From: Eubacteriales bacterium
GTDB lineage: Bacteria > Bacillota > Clostridia > Oscillospirales > JAAYOS01
Reading direction: 5' to 3'
NCBI GenBank assembly: GCA_050950785.1
Contig: JBMNIG010000007.1
Location: 166,971 to 198,970, forward strand
Length of the DNA: 32,000 bases
Shown: positions 1,384 through 15,654 of the stretch, in pieces
Position numbering within the stretch: the first letter of the stretch is position 1
Layout: every line of letters begins with the position of its first letter
The notes under the pieces: generated by a model
Told to the model about the DNA's origin: nothing
Database searches by the model: none
The model's input: the letters and a program-made list of their open reading frames with translations, nothing else
Made by a program: the position numbers and the translations under genes

Positions 1384-2865
1384 ATGAAGAACAATCAAAT
1401 TGTCCGAACCTCGCCCGAAAGTGTGGGCATACCATCAGCCTCGATAGAGTCTTTTCTTGATGGCGCAGCAAACCGTGGCATTGACCTTCACAGCCTCGTT
1501 ATACTGCGGGACGGAAAAATCTGCGCCGAGGGCTGGTGGGCACCATATGCGCCCGAGCTGCTTCATCCGATGTACTCAGCAACCAAGAGCTTTACCTCAA
1601 CCGCAATTGGCTTTGCAATACAGGAAGGGCTTTTGTCACTCGACACCAAACTTGTAGATATCTTTTCAGATTGTCTGCCTGAAAACCCATCAGAAAATCT
1701 GAAAAAAGCGACCATTCATGATTTGCTGTGCATGGGCTGCGGGCACGAAACCGAACCGGCATTAATGAATTTAGAGGGTAATTGGATAAAGAATTTCCTT
1801 GCCCATGAATTCAAGTATGAGCCGGGAACCACTTTCCAGTACAACACCGCCGGCACAAATATGCTTTGTGCGGCACTTTATCGCGTAAGCGGTCAACAGC
1901 TCTCAGAATACCTCCGTCCAAGGTTCTTTGATAAAGTTGGTATTGGTGAGTTTAAAACTACATATATGCCTGACGGAACAGAAATGGGGGGAGCAGGCTA
2001 TCGCTTGCGTACCGAAGACCTGGCGCGGCTCTGTCAGTTTATCTTAAACCGCGGAATATGGAATGGCGAGCGGCTACTGAACGAAGAGTGGTTTGATAAA
2101 ATTGGCACAAAACAAATCGAAACGAAGAACGATGTTTATAAGAACCAGAGTCCTGAATGGCTATTGGGCTATAGCTATCAGTATTGGATGTGCAAGGAGC
2201 CGGGTACCTTCCGAGCCGACGGATTATTTGGGCAATTTGGTGTTATCATTCCATCAAAGAACGCAGCGGTGGTCATAACCGAGACCACAGGCAACACACA
2301 GGGGACGCTTGATCTTATTTGGGAGCATTTGTACCCCGCAATGGGAGAACCCCTGCCGGAAGACAGCTGTGCTGAAGCCGCACTGAAAGCTCGCTTGAGC
2401 AGGCTCACACTTGCACGTTTCCCCGCGGGTACCATCAAAGGTGATTCCAAGTACAATAAGACGTACAAATCCGCCGGTGGTGGTTCGCTAGGTCTAAGAG
2501 ACCTTGCAGGATTTATGAGATTTGGCACCAAACCATCCGATTTGAAGTCGATAGGATTTAAGTTCGGCGGTGATATTGCGGAGATAACGATAGATGAGGG
2601 TGAAGGCGAAGCTGTTTTGTCCGTGCAACTTGGTATGGACTACTCGGAAAATACTTACTTCGGAGAAAAGTATTTCTGCAGAGGGCACTGGCGCTCACCG
2701 ATCCACTTTGAGATGGAGGTCCACGCTCCTGAGGCTGGTCAGGGTATGATGATAAACTTCGTATTTGATGATGAGGGCGTCTCTGTTCGTCCTGAACGCA
2801 TACTCACTATGATGCGCTTCCCTGGGATGCCGCCAATAACCGACCCGACATTCAGGATGGAATAA
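1384..2865 (+). CDS. serine hydrolase, beta-lactamase/transpeptidase-fold family (class C-like) with an extra C-terminal domain
   Basis: An S-x-x-K nucleophile motif (YSATKSF) lies about 65 aa from the N-terminus, as in AmpC-like esterases/PBPs. AGGAGA SD lies 7 nt upstream of the ATG. Confidence 0.8.
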   Translation: MKNNQIVRTSPESVGIPSASIESFLDGAANRGIDLHSLVILRDGKICAEGWWAPYAPELLHPMYSATKSFTSTAIGFAIQEGLLSLDTKLVDIFSDCLPENPSENLKKATIHDLLCMGCGHETEPALMNLEGNWIKNFLAHEFKYEPGTTFQYNTAGTNMLCAALYRVSGQQLSEYLRPRFFDKVGIGEFKTTYMPDGTEMGGAGYRLRTEDLARLCQFILNRGIWNGERLLNEEWFDKIGTKQIETKNDVYKNQSPEWLLGYSYQYWMCKEPGTFRADGLFGQFGVIIPSKNAAVVITETTGNTQGTLDLIWEHLYPAMGEPLPEDSCAEAALKARLSRLTLARFPAGTIKGDSKYNKTYKSAGGGSLGLRDLAGFMRFGTKPSDLKSIGFKFGGDIAEITIDEGEGEAVLSVQLGMDYSENTYFGEKYFCRGHWRSPIHFEMEVHAPEAGQGMMINFVFDDEGVSVRPERILTMMRFPGMPPITDPTFRME

Positions 2866-3064: not shown

Positions 3065-3913
3065 TCATTGCATGGACGAACGAACCATCCTTAAATATTC
3101 TCGAATACCGGCTTCTTCGTCGTGACGGTATGTGAAGCCAAAGTGATCTGCTACCGCTACTGCAAGAGTGTGGAACAAGTCACACATCACATCGACCGAT
3201 GCCCAGATGTCGGTATAGTCACTGCCCGAATAAGTGGCGGCGTATTGATCGTACAATTCAGGTGAGAGATATTTTTTGAAATACTTCCCGTTCTTGCCTG
3301 TAGATATGTCAAATCCGTATTGTGTGCCGAGATAATAATTGATCATATCATGAAGTTCAGACCGAACCACATCATTGAGCATATGCATTACATAAGGTAA
3401 CTCATCCCGCGCAATTCCTTTTGCGACATTGTTTAGACACCACCAGAAATTATTGCAGCATGAGTAATAGAAAAGTGGGGAGGGAGGCTTGATATGCCAG
3501 TGTTTATCGCTTGGGGCAGGCAAAGCTGGCAAAAACCCATGACCATTGTCTTTATCCAGCAGAACTACTGCAGGCTCCCCGTCATCAATGTACTTTGTAA
3601 ACTCAAAAGAGAGGTCAATGCGAACTCCATCAGGATAAATCATCATATAGTTAAAATGACCGTCTCCGTCCGGATAACGCATAGCTTCCGGCATCTGCAT
3701 AATCAGAGGCTTGCCGAAGCCTTCATCAACCCATGCAGGATTATTATAAAATGGTGCAATGTCTTCAACAAAATAGGTGATGTCGTAATCCTGGTAGATG
3801 TCCTTCGGTGCGGATGGGTTCGCCCGCGAACCGACCAGCAGTACAGCACGAATTCGTTCGTCGGCTCGAGCCACCCCTAAAATCAGGTTCATAATTTCCT
3901 GTTCATCTCGCAT
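3065..3913 (-). CDS. aadK: aminoglycoside 6-adenylyltransferase, ANT(6)/AadK family
   Basis: MRDEQEIMNLILGVARADERIRAVLLVGSRANPSAPKDIYQDYDITYFV parallels, from memory, the B. subtilis AadK / ANT(6)-Ia N-terminus (MRSEQEMM...DERIRLV.LEGSRTN....D.FQDYDISYFV). The 282-aa length matches the family. GGGAG SD is present. Confidence 0.85.
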   Translation of the reverse strand: MRDEQEIMNLILGVARADERIRAVLLVGSRANPSAPKDIYQDYDITYFVEDIAPFYNNPAWVDEGFGKPLIMQMPEAMRYPDGDGHFNYMMIYPDGVRIDLSFEFTKYIDDGEPAVVLLDKDNGHGFLPALPAPSDKHWHIKPPSPLFYYSCCNNFWWCLNNVAKGIARDELPYVMHMLNDVVRSELHDMINYYLGTQYGFDISTGKNGKYFKKYLSPELYDQYAATYSGSDYTDIWASVDVMCDLFHTLAVAVADHFGFTYRHDEEAGIREYLRMVRSSMQ

Positions 3914-4146: not shown

Positions 4147-5247
4147 TTACGATGAATATTCATCAAAAAAACTCCCTTTTTTCATTTGCTTACTCCATTT
4201 GGAGATCGACTTGTGCCGTGCTTTTTTCTCTTTAAGATAACCAGTTTTGTCGTCCACAAATCTATTTTCCTGCTTCTGAGCCAAGTAGTACTCCCAACGC
4301 TCTCGGGATAAAGCACCATCGTTGAGCGCCGCAAGGACCGCGCATCCCGGCTCGGTTTTATGACGGCAGTCGGTAAATCGGCATTCTGTGAATAACTCCT
4401 CTACATCTGAAAATTCCGTGCTGATTCCTTCGTCTGCGTGAAATAACCCCAGTTCACGCATCCCCGGTGTATCTATAACCATTGCACCGGATGGCAGCAT
4501 GAAAAGTTGACGATGGGTTGTGGTGTGGCGACCTCTGCTGTCACCCTCCCGGATGGAACTTACAGCCATTACTTCCTGTTTCATCAAAGCATTTAGCAAT
4601 GACGATTTGCCCACACCGGACATTCCAAGAAAAACTATTGTTTTTCTTGGCTGTAAATAGCTTTCCAACTCATCAAGTCCGAAACCCGTGTGACTGGAAA
4701 CTGCATGTACAGGTACATGTGGTGCAGCTTTTCGGATATCAGCCACGTATTGATTAGAATCTGATTGCAAATCAGCTTTAGTCAATATCACAACGGGCTG
4801 TGCACCGCTTTGCCTTGCCATCGTTAAATAACGCATGACGCGACTTACGTTGAAATCGCGATTCAAGGAAGTCAGAATAAATACGTAGTCAAAATTCGCC
4901 GCAATGGTCTGTTGCAGAACTGTCTTGACAAATCCTGCCGCATGCCCTGAAAAGTCACTACGTACAAACATAGACTTTCGAGGAAGCGTTCTAATAATTA
5001 TGCTATCTCCGCTCTGATTTAAGCTTATCAGCACAAAATCTCCTGTTGTAGGAAAACTCTCTCTGCCATCGGTGTAATAAACACTGGATTTCAATCTTCC
5101 AAAAATGGTTCCGTATTCGCATATTAGTTCATAGCGGTCCTTGTGAACGGCTGTAACTCTTGCAGGAATAACAGATGCATCGTATTGCGTCATGTCGAGA
5201 GAGTAAAGCATAGTCTCGAAAAACCCGTAGTCTTCTAATAATATCAA
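4147..5247 (-). CDS. rsgA: ribosome small subunit-dependent GTPase A
   Basis: The circularly permuted GTPase motifs are present: LTKADL (G4), GMSGVGKSSLLNAL (G1), DTPGMRE (G3), and a C-terminal zinc-finger region CRFTDCRHKTEPGCAV. I place the start at the TTG at 5247, which has GGAGGG 8 nt upstream. The track ORF extends to a GTG at 5289. Confidence 0.85.
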   Translation of the reverse strand: MILLEDYGFFETMLYSLDMTQYDASVIPARVTAVHKDRYELICEYGTIFGRLKSSVYYTDGRESFPTTGDFVLISLNQSGDSIIIRTLPRKSMFVRSDFSGHAAGFVKTVLQQTIAANFDYVFILTSLNRDFNVSRVMRYLTMARQSGAQPVVILTKADLQSDSNQYVADIRKAAPHVPVHAVSSHTGFGLDELESYLQPRKTIVFLGMSGVGKSSLLNALMKQEVMAVSSIREGDSRGRHTTTHRQLFMLPSGAMVIDTPGMRELGLFHADEGISTEFSDVEELFTECRFTDCRHKTEPGCAVLAALNDGALSRERWEYYLAQKQENRFVDDKTGYLKEKKARHKSISKWSKQMKKGSFFDEYSS

Positions 5248-5687: not shown

Positions 5688-7370
5688 GTATGTGTCAAGT
5701 AATCGTTGGGAAATATTTCTGAGTTAGAAAATTAGCATCAAATCAAGATAAGACTTATTTTTAGGATTGCAAAGCATCACCGTATCATACCGGTGCGCTA
5801 GTACTTGTATGAGCATAGTTCTTAGGAGCCGAAACGTATGTTGCTTAAGGCTCTCATTCCTAGAAGAGATTTGCTCCACTTCATGTTAGGGATTTCTGCG
5901 CGCTTGAAGCCATTGTATCCTTTGCCAACGGCCTGCTGCGTCTTAGCGGAGCTAAATCCGGTTATTGCATGAAGAGATGTGGTTGGGATTACTTCGCCTA
6001 TCACAGAGAGTGTACGTTTTAGACGACCTGTTTGCTTCAGACAGATCAAGGCAGCCAGATGATTGGCTCCATCAATGCTCCAGGAGGCACGTCTGCCCTT
6101 CATTCTGTTACCAACCATAGTAAATATATTGCTCTCCATAGCACCTAAAGGTGCACGCTGTAGGCCAGGATTTACGTCAGGTATCTCAAGTCCTCTCTCG
6201 TGGTACGGAATAAGAGCATCCTTGTTGTTGCTAAAATAGCTTAGTAGAGCTTTTCTTCTTTTTTGCTCTGTTTCATCAACTGTGCTATTTATTGAGGCTT
6301 CAATTACATCCAATAGATCATCAATCCTCTTGTTAAGAAGGAGATCCATCATAAGGCTACAAAGATCAGGGTCATTTACGTACTCTCGAATCGCTTTGTT
6401 CCGGTGAAAGATATCTAACTGGTACACTGTGTCCGCCCCCTTTTGTCCCTTTATCCACTTAGCTCCATCTCCATTGAGTATGCGCATTTCAATTTCATCT
6501 ACGTTGTAAACAGAGGCTATATGCCCTTCCTTGCGTTCAACAAACTCCGAAGCGCTTTCAAAACTTGCACAGGCAACCTTATCAGATAGGTTTCGGCGGC
6601 CACCGGCCGTCTCGCTGATACCGGTGTAAGCAATTGCAACCTTCATTTCTTTGGATTTGCCGTGCTCTTTACGGGCTTTCCCCTGCAGCGATAGCCACAC
6701 ACCATCTTGTTCTTCGAATAACACCTTGCTTTCAAGTTGGCCTGTGCCTTTATTCTGCACAGCCTTTTCTGCAAGTTGCTCTTCATATCCCAGAACCCGA
6801 CTTCCAACTGCCTGTGTAACAGACCAAGCTGTTGTATGGGATATCTTTAGACCGCTTGTCTCACTTATCTTCTCTGCCACTTCACGATAATCACTTTCGC
6901 ACGCTGCAGTTGCTATAAGGCTTGACACAAGCTCACTCATTTTTCCCGGTGCATCAATTCCTAAAGCATTATCAAGAAGGTATGTGTACTCTTTTCCTCC
7001 GCTTTCATCACGTGTCCAGTACACTCTCCGGCTATATTCAACCTCTCCCATGATTGTCTTGAGGCTTGTCTTACGTTGCCCCTCACTCTTGTATTCCTTG
7101 ACATCTCTTTGGCTAAATATCTGCTCATCTAGCTCTGTCAGTATCTCAGCCATTTGTGCACGGCCTATCGCCATACACATATCGTAAATATTTCTTTCAA
7201 TTTTTTGTAAATCTACCTTGAATTCTTTCCCGTTCTCGGTTAGAATCATAGTTGCATACACCACCTGTCTGATTTTTTCTTCAAACTAATCTTAACAAGG
7301 TTTGTATGCAAAGGGAAGGGCTTTTTTAGCTTTTCCCTTTTCTTTTTCCCAATGATTATTTTACACTAAG
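5688..7370 (-). mobile_element. complete insertion sequence, ISLre2 (UPF0236) family
   Basis: A single transposase ORF is flanked by imperfect terminal inverted repeats, GTATGTGTCAAGTAATCGTTGGGAAA (5688-5713) against the reverse complement of 7345-7370, matching at 20 of 26 positions. Perfect 9-bp direct repeats GTATAATTT lie at 5679-5687 and 7371-7379. Confidence 0.8.
5822..7264 (-). CDS. ISLre2/UPF0236 family transposase
   Basis: The 480-aa size fits the family, and the block KTIMGEVEYSRRVYW...YTYLLDNALGI...KMSELVSSLIATAACESDYREVAEKISETSGLKISHTTAWSVTQAVG resembles the UPF0236/ISLre2 N-terminal region as I remember it. The start is either the GTG at 7264 or the ATG at 7249. Confidence 0.8.
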   Translation of the reverse strand: MVYATMILTENGKEFKVDLQKIERNIYDMCMAIGRAQMAEILTELDEQIFSQRDVKEYKSEGQRKTSLKTIMGEVEYSRRVYWTRDESGGKEYTYLLDNALGIDAPGKMSELVSSLIATAACESDYREVAEKISETSGLKISHTTAWSVTQAVGSRVLGYEEQLAEKAVQNKGTGQLESKVLFEEQDGVWLSLQGKARKEHGKSKEMKVAIAYTGISETAGGRRNLSDKVACASFESASEFVERKEGHIASVYNVDEIEMRILNGDGAKWIKGQKGADTVYQLDIFHRNKAIREYVNDPDLCSLMMDLLLNKRIDDLLDVIEASINSTVDETEQKRRKALLSYFSNNKDALIPYHERGLEIPDVNPGLQRAPLGAMESNIFTMVGNRMKGRRASWSIDGANHLAALICLKQTGRLKRTLSVIGEVIPTTSLHAITGFSSAKTQQAVGKGYNGFKRAEIPNMKWSKSLLGMRALSNIRFGS

Positions 7371-8575: not shown

Positions 8576-9130
8576 ATGATACCAACTCCTACACAAGCAC
8601 GAGAAATCCTGGAAAAGTACAACAAGGAACCGTTCCACTTGCTTCATGGTGAAACGGTATCAGAAGTAATGGGATGGTTTGCTCAGAAATACGATCTAGA
8701 AAACATCGACTATTGGCGTACTGTCGGTATGCTTCATGATATTGACTTTGGGCTTTATCCTGAACAGCACTGTGTCAAAGGCATTGAGCTAATGAGAGAT
8801 GAAGGAATCGATGAGAGTATCATCCGCTCTGCCCTAAGTCACGGATGGGGCATGACTGAAACGCCATATGAACCGGAAAGTATTATGGAAAAACTGCTTT
8901 TTGCCGTTGATGAGTTGACCGGGTTGATTGGTGCCGCAGCTTTGATGCGTCCGAGCAAAAGTGTATCCGATATGAAACTTTCCAGCCTGAAAAAGAAATT
9001 TAAAGATAAGAAATTCGCTGCCGGCTGTTCTCGGGAGACTATTGCCAAGGGAGCAGAAATGCTTGGCTGGGAGCTTGATGAGCTTTTAGAGCAGACTTTG
9101 CAAGCAATGCAAGCGACAGAAAAGCGTTAA
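8576..9130 (+). CDS. HD domain-containing phosphohydrolase
   Basis: H...HD motif (HGETVSEV...GMLHDIDF) and a size of about 185 aa. The ATG at 8576 is preceded by AAAGGTGA. Confidence 0.75.
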   Translation: MIPTPTQAREILEKYNKEPFHLLHGETVSEVMGWFAQKYDLENIDYWRTVGMLHDIDFGLYPEQHCVKGIELMRDEGIDESIIRSALSHGWGMTETPYEPESIMEKLLFAVDELTGLIGAAALMRPSKSVSDMKLSSLKKKFKDKKFAAGCSRETIAKGAEMLGWELDELLEQTLQAMQATEKR

Positions 9131-9280
9131 TAATAGCGTTAATAATTGCGTCTACCACCATTAGCATCTACTATTTCATCGGGTCGAGGGGAATAATGCA
9201 TATCGAGTATTATCGCGAAGCGTGTTATACTACTAATAATAATGAACTTAGTAGTACATAACACACTAGAGGTGAACATT

Positions 9281-10444
9281 ATGAGAGATTTTACTTTTCA
9301 CACTCCCACTGAGGTGATTTTCGGGCGTGACGCGGAGCTCAAAACCGGTCAGGCGGCGAAAAAATATGGCGCGAGTCGCGTATTAGTCGTATACGGAAAG
9401 GGAAGTGTTGTCAGGAGCGGTCTACTGGACAGAGTATGCAAGACCTTCGAAGAAGAGGGGCTTTCATATCAGCAGTTCGGCGGTGTTGAGCCAAATCCTC
9501 GTGTTGGTTTGACTCGCGAGGCGATAAAGACGGCTATCGATATGAAAGCAGACATGATTGTCGGAGTGGGTGGCGGAAGCGTCATTGATACGGCCAAAGC
9601 AATAGCCCATGGCGCGGCAAATCCCGATATTGACATATGGGATTTATGGCTTAGGAAGCAACCTCTGGAGAAGAGCTTGCCTGTCGGAGCCGTTGTCACA
9701 ATTCCGGCTGCCGGGAGCGAGATGAGTGATTCCTCGGTTCTGACCAACGAAGAGACGCAAGAAAAACGAGGCCTAAACACGCAACTGAACCGTCCTGCTT
9801 TTGCCATAATGAACCCAGCTCTCGCTACTACGCTTCCGATCTATCAGGTTGCATGTGGTGTAACTGATATCTATATGCACACTCTGGAAAGGTATTTTTC
9901 GCCAGTAACGGGCAATGACTTCACCGATGAAGTAGCAGAGGCACTAATGCGAGTCGTCATACGAAATGGAAGACGTGTTGTAAAGGATCCTAACGATTAT
10001 GATGCCATGAGTGAGATCATGTGGTGTTCAAGCGTATCCCATAATGGACTTACAGGCTTGGGCGGGGAGAAAGATTTTTCTGCCCATCAGTTAGGACAAG
10101 CGATAGGCGGTATTTACGACAAAGCCCACGCAGCAACACTTTCTGCTGTTTGGGGAAGCTGGGCATGGTATGTGCTTAAAACTAACCCTTCCCGATTTGA
10201 AAAATACGCCATGAACGTATGGGGAGTTGAAACAGCGGAAGAAGGTATAGAGAAAACCGTTGAATTTTTCAGTGAAATCGGAATGCCTATTACCTTAAGT
10301 GAGCTTGGGATTGGCATTTTATCCGATACGGAACTCGATGCGCTTGCCGTCAAATGCACATACGGCAAATCCAGAACAATTGGCAGCTTTAAGGTTTTGG
10401 ATTATGATGACATTTTGAAAATTTATGAAGCGGCCAATAAATAA
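9281..10444 (+). CDS. iron-containing alcohol dehydrogenase (butanol dehydrogenase-like)
   Basis: GVGGGSVIDTAKAIA NAD(P)-binding glycine motif and metal-binding His residues (HTLERY, VSHNGLTG...HQLG), with length 387 aa. GAGGTGA SD precedes the ATG at 9281. Confidence 0.9.
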   Translation: MRDFTFHTPTEVIFGRDAELKTGQAAKKYGASRVLVVYGKGSVVRSGLLDRVCKTFEEEGLSYQQFGGVEPNPRVGLTREAIKTAIDMKADMIVGVGGGSVIDTAKAIAHGAANPDIDIWDLWLRKQPLEKSLPVGAVVTIPAAGSEMSDSSVLTNEETQEKRGLNTQLNRPAFAIMNPALATTLPIYQVACGVTDIYMHTLERYFSPVTGNDFTDEVAEALMRVVIRNGRRVVKDPNDYDAMSEIMWCSSVSHNGLTGLGGEKDFSAHQLGQAIGGIYDKAHAATLSAVWGSWAWYVLKTNPSRFEKYAMNVWGVETAEEGIEKTVEFFSEIGMPITLSELGIGILSDTELDALAVKCTYGKSRTIGSFKVLDYDDILKIYEAANK

Positions 10445-10490
10445 TCCTCTCACGTGAAGGATTGACACGCCTATAATGCAATCCACAATT

Positions 10491-10524
10491 AATCAAGCGC
10501 CGGTTAAACCGGCGCTATTCCATG
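10491..10524. repeat. GC-rich hairpin repeat, copy 1 (likely a bidirectional terminator after the ADH gene)
   Basis: AATCAAGCGCCGGTTAAACCGGCGCTATTCCATG. The stem is AGCGCCGG (10496-10503) / CCGGCGCT (10509-10516). The same sequence recurs at 12193-12227 with a single 1-nt indel. Confidence 0.85.
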
Positions 10525-10723
10525 CTTATACCACATATTATTAAAGGCATTCGTAATTATCGTTTGAGTCTAAATTTTTTTGACTTTGAGGTTCGCTGAT
10601 TGTCACATACAGCGTTATTATGATACTGAACATTATTAACCACCATGCTTTGATTAACCCAAATGCGATAATGGCCATTAGACAGTACCCATACATGGCA
10701 AGCTAAGTCAAATGTATAAAGCG

Positions 10724-12233: not shown

Positions 12234-14225
12234 TTACATTAGCTGGCTTTCGTGTTTTGCGAAAAAGTCGACTCGCGGTTCCAAAAACTTAAGGTTATGC
12301 TCGGACGGGTTTTCAATAAAATCATATATCGAGTCAAAGATCCTATCCCAACTCCAAAAATCTTCACTCAGATTCAAATAGTCCAGTATCATTTCAGTCC
12401 CCTCCGGAGCAACCGGATGCATCAAAACAGCAGCCGTTCTTACCATATGGAAGGTATCTATTATCGTCTGAGCCCTTAAGTCATTATCATCTTCTTTGTC
12501 TGCATCTCGGATCATCTTTACCCAGTACTTATTCATGCCTCGGATATAAGTGTCCATCAGACTCATCATCAGGTGAAAATCACACTTATACATCAACTTC
12601 TCATATTCCAGGATCGTACTCTTCGCCTCGGTCAATACCTCTTCGCTAATTTTCCCCACAGGAAGCTTTCCGTCGAAGTATTTCTGCACAGTGTAAAAGC
12701 AGGATCTTACAACCCTATTGAATACGTTTGTTAAGAGGTTTCCCTCTTTGAGGACAGGATCACTGTCTTTTTCGCCAGCCTTTGGATTGAATGGTTTCGG
12801 CTGAAAGCTTACACTTCTTATTCCAAGGCCAAGACCAAGAAAGTGTGCCCTCAACTGTTCCGGCGTGTAGTGTTCAAGAAGCTCCCGAGCTGTAGGGGGC
12901 TTGATTTTGCCGCTGCTACTGGCTTTCTTGTTCAAAAATAGCAGATGATTGTTAACTATCAGATGCGGTAATTGCATTTCACCTTCGGGCGGATCAGCTG
13001 TTGGTTGCTTGCCCTGCAATCCCATGAACATAGCCATTTCGGCAGGTCCGTAGAAATAGACATTGTCTTCGCCTATAAACTGGAACACCCCGGCATCCTT
13101 CGAGCACCACCAATCCTTCCAATCGTCGTCATCCTTGCCATTCATCTCAAGGAAGCATTTTGTAAAAGAAATCGGTGCCCACAGCGATTCAGGCCATACC
13201 CACACGGTTAGACCGTCAAGATCTTCGAGAACCGGAGCAGGAACTCCCCACTCTATATTACCTGTCAGTCTGAATGGGACAAGCGTTTTACCTGTTCTGA
13301 ATCTTATGGAATTATCAGCGAGGATTTGACAGGCTTTTTCCCTGTCTTCCAATGTCTCAAACACCAAAACAGCGGAGGGCTTTCTGTCTTCGACCTTGCA
13401 TTCAAACCTAGGGAGCTGACTTCTTAAGTCATCAAGGGACTCGAGTAGATCCTTCTTGATATATATCACGGGAGGCTCAAGAAATTCCTTGATGCTACTT
13501 ATTGCAAAATCTCTAATAATCCCATTCCCCTCGGCTTTATCGATCCACTTTTTCAGAAGAGAGTAGAACTCATCAAGTTTGAAGTACCAGTTAGTTGCAT
13601 CCTTCATGATAGGCTTTTTGCCCGAAAGTAGACTTTTTGGGTTAATGAGATCGGATGGCATGTATTGGTGGCCAAGGGAGCATTCATCGGCATATGCTTT
13701 CTCGGATGAGCATCCGTCGATAGGGCACTGACCTACAACCTGACGGCCGTTGAGATATACGTCGAACTCGGTATCATAGAACTGGGATGTGGTCATCTTT
13801 CGTAGATGGCCGTTTTTATACAGTTCAGTAATGATCTCCAAAGTTAGCTCCTTGTGGATTTCAGATGCCCTTTCCAGAGCCGATGCAGCAAACAAGTTGA
13901 GACTGATGCCGTACTTATCAAGCACTTCTTTTTGCAGTTCATGATTCATTTGCACAAAATCGGTTATTGTACCATCAAACTCGCCTTTTTCAACGAGTTG
14001 TCTATAGTTTTCCAATATAGGTGAGCCATAACAGTCAGTTCCTGAAACAAATATCACGTTATCCTTTCCGATCCTGTCGCGGAGAAAACGCGCATAGGTA
14101 TCCGCATGTACAAAAACGCCCCCGACATGGCCCAGATGGAGCTCCTTGTTTCCGTACGGCATTCCTGCGGTAACGATTGCGCGCTTTGGGAATCTCGGTC
14201 GCTCTACGTTATTTACATTACTCAT
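12234..14225 (-). CDS. metG: methionine--tRNA ligase family protein (class I aaRS, E. coli-type MetRS fold, divergent KMSKS)
   Basis: PYGNKELHLGHVGG (HIGH), a zinc-knuckle region CPIDGCSSEKAYADECSLGH, FIGEDNVYFY and a helical anticodon-domain pattern ...LMHPVAPEGTEMILDYLNL align block by block with E. coli MetRS as I remember it. The KMSKS position reads KASSS. GGAGG SD is present, and the gene is preceded by a T-box leader. Confidence 0.75.
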   Translation of the reverse strand: MSNVNNVERPRFPKRAIVTAGMPYGNKELHLGHVGGVFVHADTYARFLRDRIGKDNVIFVSGTDCYGSPILENYRQLVEKGEFDGTITDFVQMNHELQKEVLDKYGISLNLFAASALERASEIHKELTLEIITELYKNGHLRKMTTSQFYDTEFDVYLNGRQVVGQCPIDGCSSEKAYADECSLGHQYMPSDLINPKSLLSGKKPIMKDATNWYFKLDEFYSLLKKWIDKAEGNGIIRDFAISSIKEFLEPPVIYIKKDLLESLDDLRSQLPRFECKVEDRKPSAVLVFETLEDREKACQILADNSIRFRTGKTLVPFRLTGNIEWGVPAPVLEDLDGLTVWVWPESLWAPISFTKCFLEMNGKDDDDWKDWWCSKDAGVFQFIGEDNVYFYGPAEMAMFMGLQGKQPTADPPEGEMQLPHLIVNNHLLFLNKKASSSGKIKPPTARELLEHYTPEQLRAHFLGLGLGIRSVSFQPKPFNPKAGEKDSDPVLKEGNLLTNVFNRVVRSCFYTVQKYFDGKLPVGKISEEVLTEAKSTILEYEKLMYKCDFHLMMSLMDTYIRGMNKYWVKMIRDADKEDDNDLRAQTIIDTFHMVRTAAVLMHPVAPEGTEMILDYLNLSEDFWSWDRIFDSIYDFIENPSEHNLKFLEPRVDFFAKHESQLM

Positions 14226-14269: not shown

Positions 14270-14590
14270 TATAGAAAAACTCCCACCTCCAGGATCCTTT
14301 GTCCTGGGGACGAGAGTTCTCGCGGTGCCACCCCGGTTCACCATAGCTTTACAGCATAGGCCTCGGTAAGTACATGTAATCAAAGATTCGATTACCTATA
14401 CTTTTGCACTGTAACGGGTGCGCCCGTTGCAGCCTACCCGACCAGCCGTTATCCACTAACATGGCGGATCGTATCGGTGCACTGCTCAGGAGCCTGTTCG
14501 TAAGGTTTTCAGCATCCCTTTTCACCTTCCGGGACTCTCTGTATCTGAAAATAGCCAAACTACTATTCTCCGTCATCGCTTTCCAATATT
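14270..14590 (-). promoter_or_regulatory. T-box riboswitch leader (transcription attenuation type)
   Basis: On the minus strand I see: a K-turn/S-turn start GCGAUGACGGAGAAUAGUA, an AG bulge AGAGAG, a distal loop GGUGAAA, and the canonical T-box AACCGGGGUGGCACCGCGAG with an antiterminator (GGGG / bulge UGGCACC / GCGAG-CUCGU / CCCC). A terminator stem follows (CCCCAGGA...UCCUGG(A)GG) and then UUUUU (14275-14279). Confidence 0.85.
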
Positions 14591-14597
14591 AAGTTGA

Positions 14598-14626
14598 ATT
14601 ATAGCGGTAATATCCATATTTGTAAA
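14598..14626 (-). promoter_or_regulatory. sigma-70-like promoter of the T-box leader
   Basis: On the minus strand, TTTACA (14626-14621), a 17-nt spacer and TATAAT (14603-14598), about 10 nt upstream of the Stem I start. Confidence 0.5.
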
Positions 14627-14832
14627 GTGCTTTTGTTATTGCACTTGAATAGGCAAGGTATATTTACAGTATACGCAACTTATATTAGTAATATTTGACA
14701 CCGATATTGATATTAAATATAATCGTATTATTATATCAAAATCATTTGGAATATTCATGGACAAGAAACTGTTTTGGTTTTTTGGGAAAAATCAGATCGT
14801 GGGATGAAAATAGATAAATGGGTGGATCAAAG

Positions 14833-15654
14833 ATGAAAACGCTTTATGTCTCAGACCTTGACGGCACTTTACTTAATGCAGATGCTGAATTGTCGAGCTA
14901 CACCGTTGAAACACTAAATAGGCTGATCAGTAGCGGCGCTTACTTTTCCGTGGCAACAGCACGAACTGCTGCCACAACTTTATTTATTCTCGAGGATGTG
15001 AAAGTCAATGTGCCGATTATATTGATGAATGGTGTCCTTGTATATGATATTCAGTCCCGGCAATACATCAAGAAGGAAGTGCTGAGCAGAACACTCACAG
15101 CACAGATTACCGCTGCTATAAAGAAAACGGGACAAAACGGCTTGATGTATGCTGTACAAGGCAATGAACTCCACACCTATTATGAGAGACTCGAAAAAGA
15201 GCCGCTGAAAGCTTTTGTGGATGAGCGGATACAAAAATACAATAAGCGTTTTGAACAGATAAGCGATTTTGATAATGTTGATGCGGGTATAATCTATTTC
15301 TGTTTTTTAGATGGCTATGAGAATATCCGTCGGTTATATGATGAAATCAAGAACATCGGCGGACTGAGAGTTGAGATGTACAAAGACATCTATTCTGATG
15401 ATTTTTGGTACTTGGAGATTTTCAGCGAAACCGCATCCAAGTACAATGCGATACAGTTCCTTAGGCAAAAATACGGATTTGAAAAGCTCGTGTGTTTTGG
15501 AGATAACCTAAACGACCTTCCGATGTTTGATGGTTGTGATGAATGTTATGCTGTCGCAAACGCTAAACCGGAGTTAAAAGAAAGGGCAACTGCTGTTATT
15601 GGCAGTAATACTGAAGATGGTGTGGCTCGTTTTCTTGATAAAAATGTACTATGA
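14833..15654 (+). CDS. Cof-type HAD-IIB family hydrolase (sugar-phosphate phosphatase-like)
   Basis: LYVSDLDGTLL (HAD motif I), SVATAR (motif II) and FGDNLNDLPMF (motif IV), at about 273 aa. GGGTGGA SD precedes the ATG at 14833. Confidence 0.85.
   Translation: MKTLYVSDLDGTLLNADAELSSYTVETLNRLISSGAYFSVATARTAATTLFILEDVKVNVPIILMNGVLVYDIQSRQYIKKEVLSRTLTAQITAAIKKTGQNGLMYAVQGNELHTYYERLEKEPLKAFVDERIQKYNKRFEQISDFDNVDAGIIYFCFLDGYENIRRLYDEIKNIGGLRVEMYKDIYSDDFWYLEIFSETASKYNAIQFLRQKYGFEKLVCFGDNLNDLPMFDGCDECYAVANAKPELKERATAVIGSNTEDGVARFLDKNVL

Follow-up and report, generated by a model that had tools for sequence, protein, structure and literature searches.

Glutamine-reading T-box leaders upstream of a divergent MetRS-fold synthetase family, a candidate non-canonical glutaminyl-tRNA synthetase

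Introduction

Why should a gene for a protein with the methionyl-tRNA synthetase (MetRS) fold lie behind a T-box leader that appears to sense a tRNA other than tRNA-Met? The question is raised by a 32,000-nucleotide stretch of DNA from an Eubacteriales bacterium (contig JBMNIG010000007.1; the whole stretch, positions 1-32,000, is called the window here), in which the leader and the gene that it controls, encoding a 663-amino-acid class I aminoacyl-tRNA synthetase, both lie on the minus strand. An initial annotation of this DNA read the leader as specific for tRNA-Gln and suggested that the gene is a MetRS paralog with a changed role. The comparative data presented below lead us to favor, with some reserve, the interpretation that a glutamine T-box controls a MetRS-derived synthetase acting on tRNA-Gln, most likely a non-canonical glutaminyl-tRNA synthetase (GlnRS). 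That the enzyme works in the supply of Gln-tRNA-Gln is probable, and the firmer of these claims; that it is a direct, MetRS-derived GlnRS, and as such a third independent route to Gln-tRNA-Gln, is put forward more tentatively.

The T-box leader and its specifier

Only one Rfam match was recovered within the 32-kb window: RF00230 (T-box), at 14585-14303 on the minus strand, which spans the full model (positions 1-219) and scores 96.4 bits against a gathering score of 93 (E = 3.2e-20). The K-turn, S-turn, AG bulge, distal loop, and antiterminator/terminator that led the initial annotation to call the T-box canonical were all found, and the positions that it assigned to CAG (14496-14494), UGGC (14330-14327), and the nearest AUG (14462-14460) are exact. 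The promoter and leader comprise the following features, with the basis for each assignment in parentheses:

14598..14626, minus strand: sigma-70-type promoter, TTTACA, 17-nt spacer, TATAAT (11/12 consensus matches; just 5' of Stem I)
14303..14585, minus strand: T-box leader, full length (RF00230 covariance model)
14484..14579, minus strand: Stem I (covariance-model alignment; alignment of 27 Stem I sequences)
14561..14567, minus strand: 5' strand of the specifier loop, AAUAGUA, in which AGUA is half of the S-turn (covariance-model alignment and comparison of leaders)
14493..14499, minus strand: 3' strand of the specifier loop, GAACAGG, made up of S-turn GAA, CAG, and the conserved purine G (model columns GAA-[a]-uuc-a; register common to 27 leaders)
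14494..14496, minus strand: specifier codon CAG (Gln), with the anticodon CUG of tRNA-Gln as its predicted partner (covariance model and 27 leaders)
14489..14492, minus strand: CUCC, 3' strand of the helix below the specifier loop, pairing with GGAG at 14571-14568 (covariation among leaders)
14303..14336, minus strand: antiterminator (T-box sequence), with the 7-nt bulge UGGCACC at 14330-14324 (model positions 186-219; fold of 14345-14300)
14327..14330, minus strand: UGGC, predicted partner of the tRNA 3' end N73-C-C-A, in which C predicts G73 (bulge comparison, 27 leaders)
14275..14321, minus strand: intrinsic terminator hairpin and U tract (minimum free energy -30.2 kcal/mol)

Four elements can be placed in Stem I: a GA/K-turn base (GAUGAC...UGAGC), the specifier loop, AGAGA at 14540-14536 as the AG bulge, and GGUGAAA at 14526-14520 as the distal loop. 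Because the terminator shares bases 14321-14303 with the 3' half of the antiterminator (helix A2), the two structures are mutually exclusive.

The glutamine codon proposed by the initial annotation is recovered by the covariance model: in the RF00230 alignment the 3' side of the loop reads GAA-CAG-G-CUCC, with CAG on the three codon columns and the following G on the conserved purine column. The model does not place an AUG in the specifier loop, and the nearest AUG, at 14462-14460, lies outside Stem I. Upstream of the orthologous gene in Proteiniborus sp. MB09-C3, RF00230 scores 102 bits and places CAA on the codon columns; since these are the same columns that hold CAG in the window, this leader gives independent support for the specifier slot. 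Of 13 other loci checked, 10 reached the gathering score, and the leader of a Hydrogenispora-like Firmicute (locus L103, discussed below) scored 87 bits.

A census of the 151 loci of this gene family with at least 450 nt of upstream sequence identified a T-box at 28. Once duplicates were removed, 27 distinct sequences of Stem I remained, which fall into three groups by sequence. As MAFFT misplaces the 5' strand by one base in CAA leaders, base pairs were counted by a script whose register was tied to the K-turn and to the 4-bp helix beneath the loop. The codon slot holds CAA in 16 of the 27 distinct leaders and CAG in 11, and AUG occurs in none of the 27 specifier loops. In 26 of the 27, G follows the codon. 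Between the S-turn GAA and the codon lies a spacer that varies (absent in 11 leaders, A in 12, G in 3, C in 1), so that the alternative triplets ACA and AAC are not conserved, and the helix below the loop covaries (GGAG/CUCC, AAGG/CCUU, AGAG/CUCU, GAGG/CCUC), which fixes the reading register. In one leader (L151) a G-C pair stands where other CAA leaders show an A.C mismatch, which makes the base following CAA-G part of the helix and confirms the register. ACA (Thr) and AAC (Asn) were considered as specifiers and rejected, as these triplets are lost in L003, L011, L105, and L145.

The antiterminator bulge reads UGGC in 15 of the 27 leaders, UGGU in 11, and GGGC in 1, and the forms are mixed in both codon groups. 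According to a review of tRNA identity, bacterial tRNA-Gln carries G73 and a U1-A72 pair, and the Met and Lys tRNAs carry A73; the TBDB paper reports a U:G73 wobble for Trp T-boxes, which is allowed in the TBDB model. C pairs with G73 and U can wobble with it, while A73 cannot pair with C; the observed mixture therefore fits a tRNA with G73, in agreement with the earlier argument that UGGC predicts G73 and excludes the A73 of tRNA-Met. ARAGORN found no host tRNA-Gln genes in the window or in 164 loci of the family and its sister clade, and no tRNA genes of any kind were found within the window.

Both kinds of determinant from which tRNA-Gln had been predicted, a glutamine codon (CAA or CAG) and a bulge base that fits G73, recur across the 27 orthologous leaders. 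The reading of glutamine is a property of the T-box leaders across the family, not just of the copy in the window, and the window leader itself is very likely a tRNA-Gln-specific T-box.

Two further observations concern the leaders themselves. One Herbinix metagenome-assembled genome (MAG) contains two copies of the family gene that are 83% identical (L052:1051-3012 and L057:4001-5959), each with its own CAA/UGGU T-box; these may be recent paralogs, or two strains binned together. Separately, some CAG-type leaders (L082:4361-4780, L086:1-255, and L089:660-980) are extended by 150-250 nt inserted downstream of Stem I, within Stem II or the linker that follows, and the insertions of L086 and L082 include a directly repeated element (…AAAAGGGGACATACCTCAACG…). 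The leader is unusually tolerant of insertions.

The MetRS-fold protein and its family

The controlled gene is monocistronic; the gene downstream of it is convergent, and the other genes of the window are unrelated. Its 663-aa product matches the MetRS catalytic domain (PF09334) with 217 bits against a cut-off of 20. The cut-offs of the metG models were all missed (NF001100, 240 vs. 587 bits; TIGR00398, 189.5 vs. 336; NF008900, 78 vs. 598). The closest relatives in the PDB are MetRS structures at ~24-28% identity, in alignments interrupted by an insertion, and identity to E. coli MetRS falls in the same range of 24-28%. An AlphaFold2 model reached a predicted template modeling (pTM) score of 0.82, and its best Foldseek matches were MetRS structures (probability 1.0, TM 0.66-0.8). 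Domain-model searches found no homology to GlnRS (tRNA-synt_1c or TIGR00440) and no GatA/B/C or GatD/E, glutaminase, or amidotransferase domain, with only class I synthetase families matching; no cupin or other fused domain was identified by Pfam.

The family was aligned with E. coli MetRS, and then with eight canonical MetRS representatives and a sister clade. These alignments locate the following features of the gene:

12234..14225, minus strand: open reading frame (ORF) of the 663-aa class I synthetase with MetRS fold; ribosome-binding site GGAGG at 14236-14232
14127..14138, minus strand: HIGH motif H30-L-G-H33, after the family-specific G25-N-K27 (A-N-G in canonical MetRS); from alignments
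13272..13472, minus strand: inserted domain of ~65 aa (residues 252-318), beta-alpha-beta-beta-alpha; a gap against P. abyssi and E. coli MetRS, with a predicted local distance difference test (pLDDT) of 78-88
13164..13196, minus strand: W344-PES-LWAPISF354, equivalent to E. coli W253..Y260 with a 3-residue insertion and Y260 replaced by F; from alignments
13038..13079, minus strand: FIGEDNVYFYGPAE (residues 383-396), equivalent to E. coli FIGKDIVYFHSLFW, with H301 replaced by Y392 and W305 by E396; from alignments
12912..12926, minus strand: K434-A-S-S-S438, in place of KMSKS, with the second lysine lost; from alignments

The family has retained the HIGH motif, the alpha-amino-binding Asp, the Zn knuckle, and a helical domain for anticodon binding. 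The segments around them differ consistently between canonical enzymes and the family. Before HIGH, canonical ALPYANG contrasts with GMPYGNK in the family; the alpha-amino Asp region reads D(D/E)HG in canonical MetRS and TDCYGS in the family, with the Asp kept; VWFDAPIGY (the W253..Y260 segment) corresponds to VW-PES-LWAPISF; and FIGKDNIxFH..(F/W)P (the I297..W305 segment) corresponds to FIGEDNxYFY..(E/Q). At the KMSKS position canonical K(M/F/I)S(K/T)S is replaced by KASSS across the family. The insertion, which spans 4-5 residues in canonical enzymes (16 in one representative), measures 65-70 in nearly all full-length members and is modeled confidently by AlphaFold2 as a domain (model residues about 253-305). 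A further change, I297N, was rejected as a diagnostic feature, since Asn also occupies this position in most canonical MetRS.

The replaced positions include Y260 and H301, which we take, from established MetRS structural work, to be the readers of the methionine sulfur. At the sulfur-reading positions, E. coli MetRS and the eight canonical representatives keep Y...H...(F/W), whereas the window protein has F354, Y392, and E396; Y392 is invariant in the family, and position 396 is E or Q. These pocket segments gain Tyr and Glu/Gln and no new basic residue. Such gains would suit an amide side chain better than a carboxylate, which argues against glutamate as the substrate; the side chains of glutamine and methionine resemble each other in size and shape. 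The family-specific K27 beside HIGH may compensate for the degenerate KMSKS motif. Judged by these features, the 663-aa protein is probably not an ordinary MetRS.

A protein search returned thousands of relatives, the best 120 of which are 67-97% identical to the window protein; several are named "class I tRNA ligase family protein" by NCBI's Prokaryotic Genome Annotation Pipeline (PGAP). Pattern scans recovered at least 594 relatives in species-representative genomes and at least 570 in metagenomes, and identity within the family ranges from 56 to 97% across hundreds of species. The hosts are mostly Clostridia, including Oscillospiraceae, Ruminococcus (among them R. albus 8), Lachnospiraceae/Herbinix, and Proteiniborus; others are Erysipelotrichia and MAGs labeled as Spirochaetales, Atribacteria, Halanaerobiales, and other groups.

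An exhaustive hidden Markov model (HMM) search of 1.84 billion representatives separated full-length family members (1122-512 bits) from a sister clade (373-245 bits) and from canonical MetRS (at most 191 bits). The sister clade (proteins P0150, P0166, P0176, and P0187; loci L163-L166) comes from Gram-negative MAGs. It shares with the family the inserted domain, the PES insertion, Y260F, H301Y, and the Q pocket change, and it keeps KMSKS and ANG. Its genes lie among housekeeping genes without gltX, and aat, encoding Leu/Phe-tRNA-protein transferase, adjoins in 2 of 3 distinct places.

From the leader and protein data a mechanism may be proposed. Transcription would start at the promoter at 14626-14598, and Stem I of the transcript would offer CAG to the anticodon of tRNA-Gln(CUG). 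Were that tRNA uncharged, its free G73-C-C-A end would pair with UGGC, the antiterminator would be stabilized, and polymerase would enter the gene; were it charged, the terminator (14321-14275) would form and transcription would stop. The enzyme would charge tRNA-Gln with glutamine and would be induced when charged tRNA-Gln is low. By descent it would be a MetRS that kept the adenylate-forming core, lost the sulfur-reading residues, and gained a domain. Both the aminoacylation of tRNA-Gln by this enzyme and glutamine as its amino acid are inferred.

Genomic context of the family

Bacterial gltX, encoding glutamyl-tRNA synthetase (GluRS), lies on the same strand at about 42-46 of 151-162 family loci (~30%) and is the sole recurrent neighbor of the family gene (e.g., L015:2301-3938, L063:5986-7617, L072:1110-3095, and ~40 other loci). 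In Oscillospiraceae, Ruminococcus, and Ructibacterium, gltX is directly upstream, with gaps of 14-38 nt; in Erysipelotrichia it is directly downstream, with a 3-nt gap; and at a few loci the two genes are separated by an ORF. The occurrence of two independent gene orders argues for functional coupling to glutamate/glutamine (Glx) tRNA metabolism. This linkage, together with the sub-threshold metG scores and the replaced residues of the methionine pocket, supports the earlier suggestion that the gene is a paralog with a changed role.

The neighboring gltX genes are of two subtypes: one of ~483 aa, with 499 bits to TIGR00464, and a divergent one of ~545 aa, with 307-319 bits against a cut-off of 290, whose C-terminal domain is too divergent to align with T. 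thermophilus GluRS. The residue equivalent to T. thermophilus R358, which is Arg in the canonical-type gltX neighbor, was considered as a sign of a discriminating GluRS and dropped as weak, since Borrelia GluRS also has Arg there. The intervening ORFs are varied. In R. albus 8 an ORF on the same strand as gltX and the family gene separates the two (L072:3125-3940, plus strand); it encodes a predicted membrane protein of 271 aa with a weak match to DUF6056 below the cut-off, and no Rfam elements were found in the gap between the two synthetase genes; at L034 the intervening ORFs are small and have no assigned function.

One locus, L103, on a 691-kb contig of a Hydrogenispora-like Firmicute, combines a glutamine T-box (4596-4876) controlling the family gene with a canonical glnS gene (8971-10686, plus strand) 2 kb downstream of the family gene. 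The product of this glnS shares 61% identity with E. coli GlnRS, and the genes lying between it and the family gene are unrelated. The bulge of the L103 leader is GGGC, not UGGC, and so is missing the U expected to pair with A76. A tblastn search with E. coli GlnRS and MetRS, confined to the collected loci, found one canonical glnS (that of L103) and no second metG. A protein search from the L103 GlnRS returned relatives in Hydrogenispora, Desulfallas, and Peptococcaceae, and none from the named isolates that bear the family gene. The GlnRS of Hydrogenispora ethanolica shares 82% identity with the L103 enzyme. No biosynthetic gene cluster surrounds the family gene at the loci examined. An amidase beside the Proteiniborus family gene was considered and rejected as a generic amidase that is not conserved.

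Elsewhere in the window, a perfect (12/12) sigma-70 promoter, TTGACA-17-TATAAT, at 14695-14723 on the plus strand is divergent from the T-box promoter and faces a haloacid dehalogenase (HAD)-hydrolase gene at 14818-15654. Farther away, the genes at 1384-2865 (plus strand), 3065-3913 (minus strand), and 5822-7264 (minus strand) include a streptomycin/aminoglycoside adenylyltransferase-family gene (PF04439, 334 bits), which lies near a beta-lactamase-family gene and a gene for a UPF0236 protein; together they may constitute a small resistance or mobile gene cluster.

Comparison with known systems

The window leader shares with RF00230 T-boxes, and with the glutamine class among them, the full canonical anatomy and the UGGN bulge. 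Glutamine T-boxes are a rare class: TBDB holds 226 in total, 215 with CAA and 11 with CAG. The window leader differs from that class in using the rare CAG codon and in controlling a MetRS-fold protein, rather than a GlnRS/GluRS-fold enzyme, a transporter, or a biosynthetic gene. Compared with canonical MetRS (E. coli MetG; P. abyssi, PDB 1rqg), the family has in common the fold, HIGH, the alpha-amino Asp, the Zn knuckle, and the anticodon-binding domain, and is set apart by the pocket changes, KASSS, GNK, the PES and 65-aa insertions, sub-cut-off scores, and a T-box that reads glutamine.

A parallel is the class I lysyl-tRNA synthetase (LysRS) gene lysK of Bacillus cereus (PMC2916919), where a T-box likewise governs a synthetase of unexpected lineage and the genome can also hold the usual enzyme. 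In that case activity is proven and the T-box codon matches the enzyme (PMC2916919), whereas here the annotation says Met, the T-box says Gln, and the function is predicted. Against the known routes to Gln-tRNA-Gln (glnS, or a nondiscriminating GluRS (ND-GluRS) or GluRS2 with GatCAB), the family shares the predicted supply of charged tRNA-Gln and the linkage to gltX. It has no specific homology to GlnRS, GluRS, or GatCAB and would be a third independent lineage.

A precedent for a change of substrate comes from PDB 9l8v, a Foldseek match to the model of the 663-aa protein: this structure is the C-terminal MetRS-like domain of PyrN with L-glutamyl-sulfamoyl-adenosine. As the glutamate analog shows, the amino acid accepted by the MetRS fold can change. 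Between PyrN-type domains and the family the relationship is distant (E = 2.3e-5), and the family is free-standing and T-box-controlled and keeps the anticodon-binding domain. MetRS-like domains of the PyrN type occur fused within biosynthetic proteins and are not known to charge tRNA.

A search of the open full-text literature, with subscription-only literature outside its reach, returned no description of a MetRS-like enzyme for tRNA-Gln or of a glutamine T-box paired with a MetRS-fold protein. The T-box is a new member of a known rare class; its pairing with a MetRS-fold synthetase family is new.

Alternative explanations

Several observations weigh against the interpretation of this family as a MetRS-derived GlnRS. 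The T-box is found at no more than 28 of the 151 loci. The family gene coexists with canonical glnS in L103, so the family is not always the only GlnRS of its host; there it may be a starvation-induced or alternative paralog, in the manner of thrZ, tyrZ, and lysK. Conserved N503 and R507 of the family line up with N391 and R395, through which MetRS contacts the anticodon, and if the sister clade proves to be a working MetRS, the argument from the pocket is weakened. Linkage to gltX would also fit an indirect role, and T-boxes for amide amino acids can govern enzymes of the indirect pathway, as with the Asn-specific T-boxes that control aspS/gatCAB in C. acetobutylicum.

The alternative that best survives is such an indirect route, though we consider it unlikely. 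The enzyme would load Glu onto tRNA-Gln, as an analog of GluRS2 feeding GatCAB, or would convert Glu-tRNA-Gln made by GluRS to Gln-tRNA-Gln. The tight gltX operons at ~30% of loci, the divergence of one gltX subtype (307-319 bits vs. 290), and the existence of a MetRS-like domain that binds a Glu-adenylate analog (PDB 9l8v) are all consistent with this proposal. However, the pocket has gained Tyr and Glu/Gln, with no Arg or Lys to hold a gamma-carboxylate; the alpha-amino Asp and HIGH are kept, as for ordinary activation of a free amino acid; and the protein has no glutaminase or amidotransferase domain. The Arg at the R358 position in the canonical-type gltX neighbor is a weak sign pointing the same way, toward a discriminating GluRS.

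Slightly less likely still is a role outside translation, in which the protein would be a MetRS-like ligase of the PyrN/Spb40 type, or would use Gln or Gln-tRNA-Gln for another product, with the T-box coupling expression to glutamine status. MetRS-like domains with new substrates do exist, as PDB 9l8v illustrates, and both the degenerate KMSKS (KASSS) and the coexistence with canonical glnS in L103 would be accommodated. Set against these are the conservation of the family (56-97% identity over hundreds of species) without a surrounding biosynthetic cluster, a complete anticodon-binding domain, the absence of a cupin or other fused domain, and a sole recurrent neighbor, gltX, that is itself a housekeeping synthetase.

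Finally, a divergent but true MetRS whose leader only seems to read glutamine through a shifted register, the real specifier being AUG at 14462-14460 or AAG (Lys), ACA (Thr), or AAC (Asn), is very improbable: its fold and best PDB matches are those of MetRS, N391 and R395 are conserved, and a strict "positions 2-4 from loop end" rule, with the A.C mismatch left unpaired, does read AAG in CAA leaders, but the covariance model puts CAG/CAA on the codon columns, AUG is in 0/27 specifier loops, ACA/AAC are lost in the four leaders named above while L151 pairs the disputed position as G-C, the UGGC of 15 leaders would leave the A73 of tRNA-Met or tRNA-Lys unpaired, and the metG cut-offs are missed by a wide margin. 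A misregistered Met, Lys, or Thr T-box is essentially excluded.

Implications

The repertoire of aminoacyl-tRNA synthetase lineages is considered all but complete, and the division between direct and indirect formation of Gln-tRNA-Gln is a textbook case of the evolution of the genetic code. If the family described here is a true GlnRS, it would constitute a new synthetase lineage, and glutamine would follow lysine (LysRS) as an amino acid with two dissimilar synthetase lineages. The enzyme would occur widely among anaerobic Firmicutes and their neighbors, hidden under the names "methionine--tRNA ligase" or "class I tRNA ligase family protein," and its recognition would correct a systematic metG misannotation in hundreds of Clostridia from gut, rumen, and bioreactor environments. 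Predictions of sensitivity to antibiotics that target MetRS and GlnRS would be affected as well, and the family would represent a natural synthetase switch between the near-isosteric amino acids methionine and glutamine. Even should the enzyme turn out to have another role, the family-wide mismatch between T-box and fold would show how specifiers can guide the functional assignment of orphan synthetase paralogs.

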